DNA of 64,000 nucleotides from a virus: the IMG/VR virus record IMGVR_UViG_3300022407_006250, positions 1-64,000 of that record; one strand, 5' to 3'. The first letter of the stretch is position 1. Every line of letters begins with the position of its first letter. Below the pieces are notes generated by a model. It did not search any database and was not told the DNA's origin. It saw only the letters and a list, made by a program, of their open reading frames with translations. A program made the position numbers and the translations under genes. This document shows, one piece after another, positions 47,471-62,701 of the stretch.

Positions 47471-47546
47471 ATAAAACAATTGACTACATACAAAGTATAC
47501 AGTGTATTACATGCATAGGTTAGAAAGATTTAGTTTTAAAATTATC

Positions 47547-47626
47547 GGCTCTGAAGCTTAAGGCCTTGTATAAGCACACGACTCATAATCGTAAGATAGC
47601 GGGGACGATGCCCGCGGGAGCCACCA
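47547..47626 (+). tRNA. non-canonical tRNA-Ile2(CAT, lysidine-type)
   Basis: GGCTCT/GGAGCC acceptor, ACGA-CTCATAA-TCGT anticodon arm as in bacterial Ile2, GCGGG/CCCGC T-stem with aberrant GACGATG loop, ACCA end; adjacent to tilS. Confidence 0.75.
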
Positions 47627-47632
47627 GTACCC

Positions 47633-47664
47633 TGCTCGACTACTAAAAAGTAGTCGAGCATTTT
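47633..47664 (+). terminator. hairpin/terminator after tRNA-Ile2
   Basis: perfect 12-bp stem tgctcgactact-aaaa-agtagtcgagca plus tttt. Confidence 0.7.
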
Positions 47665-47702
47665 GGTTAACAGATAACTTACTTTAAAAGATAATCCTCA
47701 TC

Positions 47703-48305
47703 ATGCAAGTACTAAAAACCTTACACGATCATGTGGCAGTAGCAGTATCGGGCGGAGTCGATAGTTTAGTGCTGTTGCATTGGTTAAGCCAGCGAAGACA
47801 AGTCACAGCCGTGCACTACCAGCATGATAGTGATTTTGCAGAACAAGAGTACGTGTTTGTGGCTGAGTTTTGCCAAATTCGCGGCATCAACCTAATTACA
47901 CAAACTCAACGACCCACACCACGACCGGGTCTTAGTCAGGAAGAATACTGGCGGCGTGGCCGCTATGAGTTTTTTAAAAGTGTTTCTCTGCCGGTATGCA
48001 CTGGTCACACACTGGATGATGCAGTAGAGTGGTATTTGTTTTCTGCTCTTAACGGGCAGGGGCATTACATGGAATATAGCCATGCTAATGTGGTTAGACC
48101 ATTTCTTATCACAAGAAAATCCAAACTAGTCGAATACGCCATTTCTAATCATGTTGAATGGTTAGAAGATACTTCAAACAGCAATGTTGATTTTGCTGTG
48201 AGAAATCGTATTAGGCATGAAATCATGCCAGCCGCACTCAAGGTCAATCCAGGCTTGTATAACATGGTTAGAAAACGAATTGTTAAAAAGGTAAACAGTG
48301 TTTAA
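47703..48305 (+). CDS. tilS: minimal tRNA(Ile)-lysidine synthetase
   Basis: AVSGGVDS PP-loop, R..RY.F, TGH..DD..E, RPFL, W.ED.SN, RNRIRH. Confidence 0.85.
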   Translation: MQVLKTLHDHVAVAVSGGVDSLVLLHWLSQRRQVTAVHYQHDSDFAEQEYVFVAEFCQIRGINLITQTQRPTPRPGLSQEEYWRRGRYEFFKSVSLPVCTGHTLDDAVEWYLFSALNGQGHYMEYSHANVVRPFLITRKSKLVEYAISNHVEWLEDTSNSNVDFAVRNRIRHEIMPAALKVNPGLYNMVRKRIVKKVNSV

Positions 48306-48365
48306 CATTAATCAACCCGCTATCCGCCGTTGACAACAAATAAAAATTTTGTTATAATATTAATT

Positions 48366-48876: not shown

Positions 48877-49626
48877 ATGATTCCAAAAATTATACATCAG
48901 ACCTTTCCTACCAAACAAATTGCAGTTCCCGTTTTTGAAAACATTACACGATTAAAAAACTCGAACCCGGGATGGGAATATCGATTCTATGATGATGCAG
49001 CAATAGAAAAGTTTATTGCTGAAAACTACGACGCTACGGTTTTGTCTGCGTACAGCAGTATCAATCCACTCTACGGTGCTGCTAGGGCCGACTTGTTTAG
49101 GTACCTGCTGATGTACAAGGCGGGCGGTGTATACTTGGATATCAAAAGCACTTGCGAACAGCCGTTTGATAATTTTATACGTGATAGCGATGAATACATC
49201 CTATCACACTGGTCAAGTTTAAACTGTAAAAATGCATTACGTCACCCGTACTGGGGCGCAGGGCATCATCCAGATATTGATCACTTGATACATGGTGAAT
49301 TTGTACAGTGGATGATAATTGCCGCACCCGGGCATCCATTCCTAAAAGCCGTGATTGATCAGACATTAAAGAATATTGACGCTTATACATCAGCATCAGG
49401 GACAGGAAAGGTAGCAGTTTTAAAGCTGACTGGGCCAATCATGTATACATTAACAATTGAAAAATTATTGTCCACTGCACCATATCGAATGATTGAATCA
49501 TATGATGAGGGCATTCGATACAGCATCTTTGACAAAAAGGTATCCCGCGTGCACAAAGATCATTTGACCCTTTTTTCCAATCATTACTCAGTACAAACCG
49601 CACCCATCGTCTTGACAGCAACGTAA
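48877..49626 (+). CDS. GT32/OCH1-like glycosyltransferase
   Basis: IPKIIHQT, NP.WEY.FYDD, ADLFRY..MY..GGVYLD, PGHPFL, TGP. Confidence 0.88.
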   Translation: MIPKIIHQTFPTKQIAVPVFENITRLKNSNPGWEYRFYDDAAIEKFIAENYDATVLSAYSSINPLYGAARADLFRYLLMYKAGGVYLDIKSTCEQPFDNFIRDSDEYILSHWSSLNCKNALRHPYWGAGHHPDIDHLIHGEFVQWMIIAAPGHPFLKAVIDQTLKNIDAYTSASGTGKVAVLKLTGPIMYTLTIEKLLSTAPYRMIESYDEGIRYSIFDKKVSRVHKDHLTLFSNHYSVQTAPIVLTAT

Positions 49627-62421: not shown

Positions 62422-62506
62422 GGAGAAGAAGCATCAATGGTGATGCAGTGGACTGTAAATCCGCCACCCTCGGGTATGACTGGTTCGATCCCAGTATTCT
62501 CCACCA
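62422..62506 (+). tRNA. tRNA-Tyr(GTA)
   Basis: GGAGAA/TTCTCC acceptor, GTGGA-CTGTAAA-TCCGC anticodon arm, variable arm, TTCGATC, ACCA. Confidence 0.9.
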
Positions 62507-62516
62507 AACAATCTAT

Positions 62517-62589
62517 CGCGGGGAGGGTCTGGTCACCAGCGAGGTCTCATAAGCCTTTGCCATCCTTGGTTCAAATCCAGGTCCCGCAA
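62517..62589 (+). tRNA. initiator-type tRNA-Met(CAT)
   Basis: CGCGGGG/TCCCGCA with C1:A72 mismatch, GAGGT-CTCATAA-GCCTT, TTCAAAT; short D arm; CCA not encoded. Confidence 0.75.
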
Positions 62590-62605
62590 CCCAATTATAA
62601 ACAGT

Positions 62606-62701
62606 CATGGTGTAATGTAAGGGAAACATACGAGAAGTCCGAGAGTCGCAAGATGTTAGGCAACCCATGCTCAAATGGTTGGTTTGATTCCAACCCACCA
62701 G
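62606..62701 (+). pseudogene. tRNA-like element with expanded anticodon arm
   Basis: TGGTG/CACCA partial acceptor, ATGT/ACAT D-stem, GTTGG-TTTGATT-CCAAC T-arm, ~35-nt insert in place of the anticodon loop. Confidence 0.35.

Follow-up and report, generated by a model that had tools for sequence, protein, structure and literature searches.

A tRNA(CAU) with a non-canonical core beside a one-domain TilS in a giant phage: a likely AUA-decoding module and exchange of its tRNA body

Can a TilS reduced to its catalytic domain form an AUA-decoding module with the aberrant tRNA(CAU) encoded just upstream of it? TilS converts C34 to lysidine, and the tRNA then reads the isoleucine codon AUA. As tRNA-Ile2 and tRNA-Met have the same anticodon, this textbook wobble-modifying enzyme requires additional domains to distinguish them. 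In this study, the question was addressed in the window, the whole 64,000-nucleotide stretch of DNA analysed, which is the first 64 kb of the 100.8-kb IMG/VR record IMGVR_UViG_3300022407_006250. CheckV estimated the record to be 28% complete, which points to a jumbo phage; the source of the window is a giant phage from a lake. One relative, whose TilS is 76% identical, has a complete genome of 322.5 kb that carries terminal repeats. The G+C content of the window's phage genome was 42%. Megablast of the region against GenBank phages gave no match.

The features of the window are listed in Table 1. At the putative promoter upstream of the tRNA gene, a consensus promoter scan gave no call. Sigma-70-type boxes were found at the matching site of three related loci, TTGACA-17-TATACT in L003 and TTGACA...TATAAT in L089 and L091. 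The distance from the CCA end to the ATG of tilS was 76 nt. The hairpin in this gap may be an intrinsic terminator, or a processing or stabilising hairpin. Hairpins of different sequence were found at the same position in L003 and in L089/L091.

Table 1. Positions of the features in the window
Feature	Position	Strand	Evidence or remark
Putative promoter, TTGACT-17 nt-TGTATT	47480..47508	+	read by eye; ~40 nt 5' of tRNA
Non-canonical tRNA(CAU)	47547..47623, encoded CCA to 47626	+	Rfam RF00005, covariation
12-bp hairpin then TTTTGG	47633..47666	+	terminator scan; between tRNA and tilS
Mini-TilS ORF, 200 aa	47703..48305	+	PF01171, TIGR02432, AF2/Foldseek
Perfect sigma-70 consensus promoter	48330-48358	+	TTGACA, 17 nt, TATAAT, TG extension
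Glycosyltransferase with DXD motif	48877-49626	+	PF04488, E = 2e-11
Class II Tyr-type tRNA (GUA)	62422-62506	+	Rfam 35.4 bits and own model; missed by ARAGORN
Initiator-like tRNA(CAU)	62516-62593	+	ARAGORN; own model 24 bits; Rfam tRNA model none
T-arm-like hairpin, then CCACCA	~62640-62700	+	no tool call

The 200-aa ORF was matched by Pfam PF01171 (E = 8e-30) and by NCBIfam TIGR02432, the TilS N-domain model (113.4 bits; cut-off 93.6). The LarE, MnmA and TtcA models scored this protein far under their cut-offs. The PP-loop SGGVDS occupies residues 16-21, with S16, G17, G18, D20 and S21 invariant in 38 homologues, and the LDDxxE, EDxSN and RNRIRH motifs were also conserved. A PDB sequence search matched only the three TilS proteins; residues 10-191 aligned with residues 26-225 of the 317-aa Aquifex TilS. 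The AlphaFold (AF2) model from 38 homologues had a pLDDT of 94.5. Its six best Foldseek matches were TilS structures (query TM 0.78-0.85; target TM 0.36-0.56), and TtuA-type thiolases ranked lower. The target TM values indicate that the model spans the N-terminal domain alone of TilS. CTD1 (PF09179) and CTD2 (PF11734) had no match in the 200-aa protein or in the 100.8-kb record, which covers about 28% of the genome. A split TilS with separately encoded C-terminal domains was sought and not found in this part of the genome: the record holds neither domain, and the neighbouring small ORFs had no Pfam match. Nor was a phage IleRS found in the 100.8-kb record. By motifs and predicted fold, the product is assigned as the TilS catalytic domain without appended domains, and lysidine-forming activity is predicted for it.

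Described TilS enzymes carry either CTD1 (type II) or CTD1 and CTD2 (type I), and without CTD2 activity falls sharply and the acceptor stem is discriminated less strictly (PMC11947777). The bare catalytic domain thus lies outside the two described architectures. The type II enzyme of Aquifex aeolicus (317 aa; PDB 1wy5, 2e21, 2e89) has the same N-terminal PP-loop domain, including SGGxDS and the conserved motifs that follow. The type I enzymes (E. coli 1ni5; Geobacillus 3a2k, with tRNA) have the same catalytic domain, and the best structural matches include these. Unlike the bacterial enzymes, the window protein has no CTD1 or CTD2 and ends about 25 residues past the catalytic domain.

The protein search gave 572 matches of about 200 aa at E ≤ 0.001. 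In IMG/VR, more than 559 stretches encoded TilS relatives, as did 122 stretches from metagenomes; the closest were P0002 (91% identical) and P0003 (84% identical). A putative phage TilS with no assigned role was reported in 2019 in the Pseudomonas jumbo phages MIJ3 and PA5oct (PMC6892783). The MIJ3/PA5oct protein is likewise one-domain, with about 203 aa, is 42% identical to the window's and belongs to the same large viral family. PA5oct has no tRNA within 4 kb of its TilS gene, whereas in the window the tRNA(CAU) lies 76 nt upstream. The missing domains and a tRNA partner were not discussed for these proteins (PMC6892783).

The window tRNA was aligned end to end by the Rfam tRNA model RF00005 at 30.9 bits (gathering threshold 29; E = 1e-4), with 7:66 and 27:43 marked as non-pairs. 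ARAGORN called no tRNA at 47547-47626 in the window. The covariance model built from its own family, R1, scored it at 74.6 bits. Read directly, the core has A8 and A9, G7 opposite G66, U6:G67, and C27 opposite A43. The T-loop is GACGAUG, inside a GCGGG/CCCGC stem, where the usual loop is UUCRANY. U8, U54 (T) and U55 (pseudouridine) are thus replaced by A8, G54 and A55, with C56, G57 and A58 kept. The anticodon loop CUCAUAA has 7 nt, with the CAU anticodon, U33, A37 and A38. The minimum-energy fold was a cloverleaf with a 12-nt D-loop and a 5-bp D-stem, which includes an A14-U21 pair; the fold z-score of -1.6 is alone not significant.

The features given in the earlier note for this tRNA (A8, G7:G66, a 5-bp D-stem and T-loop GACGATG in a CAT tRNA) were all read at their place. 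Its expectation that tRNA finders may miss the gene agreed with the missing ARAGORN call, and its description of a 200-aa TilS with the catalytic PP-loop domain only, 76 nt after the tRNA, was borne out by the TIGR02432 score and by the missing CTD1 and CTD2.

The E. coli IleRS identity elements outside the anticodon are reportedly A73, U12-A23, C29-G41 and C4-G69, in an account attributed to Nureki et al. from 1994. By these rules, taken from a single bacterium, the window tRNA has A73, U12-A23 and C29-G41, but its 4:69 pair is U-A. The Ile2-like anticodon-stem pair C29-G41 was not conserved across the family. Blastn of the window tRNA against E. coli genomes gave no match, so similarity gave no assignment to Ile2 or Met. 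Taken by its sequence, it is probably of the tRNA-Ile2 type and a candidate substrate for lysidine at C34.

Selection was examined in a family of tRNA(CAU) genes that adjoin short TilS genes in related contigs. They were gathered by ARAGORN, by eye and by covariance model, and gave 22 distinct sequences. Over these sequences the cloverleaf was 96.3% paired. Both sides were altered in 19 of the 21 stem pairs, and all four helices were supported. This level of covariation was reached by 0 of 500 shuffles, and no slid register approached it. The tertiary triple 8-14-21 occurred in three states only, without mixtures: A-A-U, the commonest and the window's state (12 sequences), the canonical U-A-A (7 sequences) and C-G-G (3 sequences). 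This is as expected of a folded tRNA core under selection, and the A-A-U state explains A8 and the 5-bp D-stem of the window tRNA. An open 7:66 pair (G:A; G:G in the window) was present in 10 of 22 members, only with A8 or C8. The anticodon loop was CUCAUAA in 21 members and UUCAUAA in one; U12-A23 was kept in 18 of 22. A73 and the encoded CCA were conserved, and pairs 29:41 and 4:69 varied.

The T-loop was fully canonical in most family members. Two loci from independent samples, L089 and L090, with TilS 64% identical to the window's, had the T-loop GACAAUG and the same T-stem as the window. Their 12-nt D-loop was homologous to that of the window tRNA. Three anticodon-stem pairs were changed on both sides between these loci and the window, yet stayed paired. 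The GAC[GA]AUG loop is therefore no accident, as it is common to the window and L089/L090 across 64% TilS identity. IMG/VR was scanned for further CAU tRNAs with this loop; none of the 86 pattern matches had flanking anticodon or T stems. All 86 are thus chance matches, and the variant is known from the window and L089/L090 only. A second T-loop allele, UGCGAAU, was found in L003, L084, L085, L091 and L096, and L009 had UUUGAGU. These loops indicate that the elbow loop is unusually free in this tRNA lineage.

No other member of the family deviates as far as the window's allele. The copy in the window could be decaying within a functional family, with TilS acting on host tRNA-Ile2 or on nothing. 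G7:G66, U6:G67 and C27:A43 together with G54 and A55, an Rfam score of just 30.9 bits and the blindness of ARAGORN to this copy are what such decay would give, and they are also the weak points of the window copy as part of a decoding module. Moreover, the nearest allele, L089, has the stem pairs 6:67, 7:66 and 27:43 intact. Against decay, the T-loop variant is the one held in common with L089/L090, the 7:66 mismatch recurs in nearly half of the family, A-A-U is its commonest triple, and the encoded CCA, the anticodon loop, the terminator and an intact tilS have all been kept. Decay of the window copy is therefore considered improbable. The comparison indicates that the window tRNA is genuine and under selection, and we propose that its unusual core (A8 with A14-U21, open 7:66 and variant elbow) is a heritable alternative architecture.

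The linkage of tRNA(CAU) and tilS was then compared among relatives. Among loci with TilS at least 58% identical to the window's, 14 of 15 had a tRNA(CAU) within about 100 nt upstream; overall, a tRNA(CAU) stood beside TilS at 34 of 160 loci, counts that include some duplicate contigs common to several collections. The TilS tree was made with FastTree, has long branches and was relied on for one well-supported group alone, the window clade (13 rows, support 98), in which a tRNA lay at most about 100 nt upstream at each locus. A second, related clade also had mostly the order tRNA then TilS. In other clades adjacency was sporadic, with canonical tRNA(CAU) upstream or downstream. No tRNA(CAU) was found within about 400 nt at 126 of 160 short-TilS loci, which makes the linkage clade-specific.

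The tRNA could instead be an elongator tRNA-Met whose place beside tilS is the legacy of a tRNA cluster, with the mini-TilS serving host or other phage tRNAs. All genes of this kind are labelled tRNA-Met by ARAGORN, and at many short-TilS loci no neighbouring tRNA is present. At 4:69 in the acceptor stem, E. coli tRNA-Met has U-A, unlike E. coli tRNA-Ile2, and the window tRNA resembles the former at this pair. However, close linkage is found repeatedly, in several clades and with the tRNA on either side of tilS. Of the twelve tRNA-like genes in the complete 322.5-kb relative, the single one with CAU adjoins tilS, and the window encodes a separate initiator-like CAU tRNA. The conserved U12-A23 and A73, both counted among the E. 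coli IleRS identity elements, also weigh against tRNA-Met. A tRNA-Met identity is thus regarded as quite unlikely.

In the same 322.5-kb relative, ARAGORN called a Leu(UAA) tRNA of 76 nt at L252/L253 (G001:C1:303152-303227) with no long variable arm. It would be unusual for a leucine anticodon to sit in a class I tRNA body.

The relation between tRNA and enzyme was further seen at L089 and L091, which are almost the same phage at this locus but carry sharply different tRNA bodies. The promoter, leader, downstream hairpin and tilS were conserved between them around the tRNA (L089:1372-1451; L091:970-1046), and the identity broke two to five bases from the mature tRNA ends. TilS DNA was 97.8% identical, the spacer 100% and the tRNA 55.6%. 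The reverse was found for L003 and L091, with 63.5% for TilS DNA, 46% for the spacer and 91.9% for the tRNA. Each allele was present in at least two independent assemblies, so the exchange is no assembly chimera. The window locus had the same mosaic pattern: identities for TilS DNA, spacer and tRNA were 67%, 44% and 78% with L089, and 73%, 66% and 58% with L003.

Because of this body exchange, tRNA and TilS are no strictly co-diverging, mutually exclusive pair. TilS genes that are 97.8% identical stand behind 56%-identical tRNAs, so nearly the same mini-TilS must accept both bodies. The two alleles have in common mainly the anticodon loop, A26, U12-A23, G53-C61, C56, A58 and A73. Acceptance of diverse tRNA bodies fits an enzyme without all body-reading domains. 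This tolerance of TilS is a concrete, testable clue to its recognition mode.

The core of the window tRNA was also found apart from mini-TilS. The Tyr-type tRNA of the window has G7:A66, A8 and a 5-bp D-stem, like the CAU tRNA, and certain tRNAs for Lys and Gly in related clusters have A8 alone. A T5-like Vibrio phage tRNA(CAU) (D419, OZ195672.1, 69946-70025; L164:1497-1576) has G7:G66, A8 A9 and the 5-bp D-stem GCUUA...UAAGC. It is 86% identical to the window tRNA over 49 nt and has the same core, but unlike the window's its T-loop is canonical (UUCGAGU). It has a T-stem mismatch, is missed by ARAGORN and is annotated in its record as a tRNA without a product name. D419 is a cultured phage, one of 286 matching Vibrio phage records. 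Tblastn found no TilS in T5-like Vibrio phages, D419 included, and the core is thus not dependent on a phage TilS. A8 and the 7:66 mismatch were considered as identity marks for TilS and rejected, since they also occur in the Tyr-type tRNA, in the TilS-less vibriophages and, for A8 only, in the Lys and Gly tRNAs. The core in the Tyr-type and vibriophage tRNAs is accordingly a trait of a phage tRNA lineage and no private handshake with the mini-TilS.

The earlier note had proposed a co-evolved, possibly orthogonal pair. Two findings argue against this, the opposite identities of tRNA and TilS genes in the exchanged loci (56% against 97.8%, and 92% against 64%) and the same core in the Tyr-type tRNA and in a vibriophage tRNA(CAU) without TilS.

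As to why the bodies vary, a tentative suggestion, to which we give a low probability, is a balanced and exchangeable tRNA(CAU) cassette, in which circulating phage populations maintain at least two deeply diverged alleles and exchange them precisely between backgrounds, with diversification driven by a host factor that senses tRNA shape. Each allele would then combine its own non-canonical elbow (GAC[GA]AUG or UGCGAAU) with an altered 8-14-21 core, a part of the suggestion that is equally doubtful. Just as speculatively, a domain-less TilS that reads the anticodon loop alone would permit free variation of the body. Candidates for the host factor are a defence nuclease directed at tRNAs, or an enzyme of modification or repair. 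The allele polymorphism would also suit an escape from tRNA-targeting defences of the host, but does not establish it.

That the RNA is a non-decoding tRNA look-alike, serving as a decoy or sponge that occupies a host nuclease directed at tRNAs, or as a processing or regulatory element of tilS, is very improbable, for although the non-canonical elbow (G54, A55), the open 7:66 pair and two very different alleles at one locus might suit such an arms race, the full cloverleaf, the 7-nt anticodon loop with U33 and A37, A73 and the encoded CCA have all been conserved, the tertiary triple shows the covariation of a folded tRNA, and most family members have a fully canonical T-loop.

We therefore consider it likely that the locus is a phage AUA-decoding module, made of a tRNA(CAU) of the Ile2 kind and its lysidine-forming enzyme. 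The linkage of tRNA and tilS in many related phages fits the self-contained module that had been put forward for this DNA. We infer the following working of the module. The tRNA gene would be transcribed from its own upstream promoter and processed to a CCA-ending tRNA(CAU), and transcription would be partly terminated at the hairpin. The 200-aa TilS may be made from read-through or from weak signals of its own. Its catalytic domain would adenylate C34 and add lysine to give lysidine; the modified tRNA would be charged by the host IleRS and would read AUA. Without the domains that bind the acceptor stem and body, the mini-TilS probably recognises little beyond the anticodon loop and the adjacent stem. 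A phage that supplies both tRNA and enzyme would make AUA decoding independent of the host's small tRNA-Ile2 pool and of host TilS.

Codon usage was examined for the demand on such a tRNA. ATA made up 22% of the phage Ile codons (13.4 per 1000), a share well above that of E. coli, yet not extreme. Of the claim of an ATA-rich genome, the excess over the E. coli level thus stood, but the richness is only moderate. The tilS gene itself had 0 ATA among its 8 Ile codons, which is not significant (chance about 0.14). Other tRNAs of the window called by ARAGORN were Arg(UCU) and Leu(UAA), readers of A-ending codons.

The components of the module are already known, as a phage tRNA-Ile2 and as the phage TilS of MIJ3/PA5oct. 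T4-like phages all encode an Ile2-type tRNA(CAU) (PMC1524935), and for a vibriophage tRNA(CAU), PMC13191261 cites a report of k2C34. Like the window's, these are CAU tRNAs, and according to these sources they are thought or shown to be lysidine-modified for AUA. They are described there as canonical and dependent on host TilS, the vibriophage one with s4U8 and so with U8. The window tRNA differs from them in having no U8, an open 7:66 pair, G54 and A55 in the T-loop, and a phage TilS partner. In the part of the literature that our search covered, no paper was found on one-domain TilS as a class, on its conserved wiring to a tRNA, or on a non-canonical core and elbow with precise allele exchange. 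The variant T-loops and the allele swapping appear to be undescribed.

The one-domain TilS proteins form a large viral family, in some clades of which the gene is wired to its likely substrate. With them, nature provides a minimal system in which to ask what the catalytic domain can recognise on its own. Among the linked tRNAs, natural replacements are seen at the 'universal' nucleotides U8, U54 and U55, and the 8-14-21 triple changes as one unit. Such tRNAs escape standard gene finders, and phage tRNA counts are therefore underestimates.

Minor observations were made elsewhere in the window. The acceptor stem of the initiator-like tRNA opens with CGCGGGG and, like bacterial tRNA-fMet, has C1 facing A72; its D-arm is odd and its 3' end is ACCC, not ACCA. 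The T-arm-like hairpin that follows it has the loop UUUGAUU and may belong to a degenerate or unusual tRNA. Directly 3' of tilS lies the perfect sigma-70 consensus promoter, followed by two small ORFs with no assigned function and then the glycosyltransferase gene.
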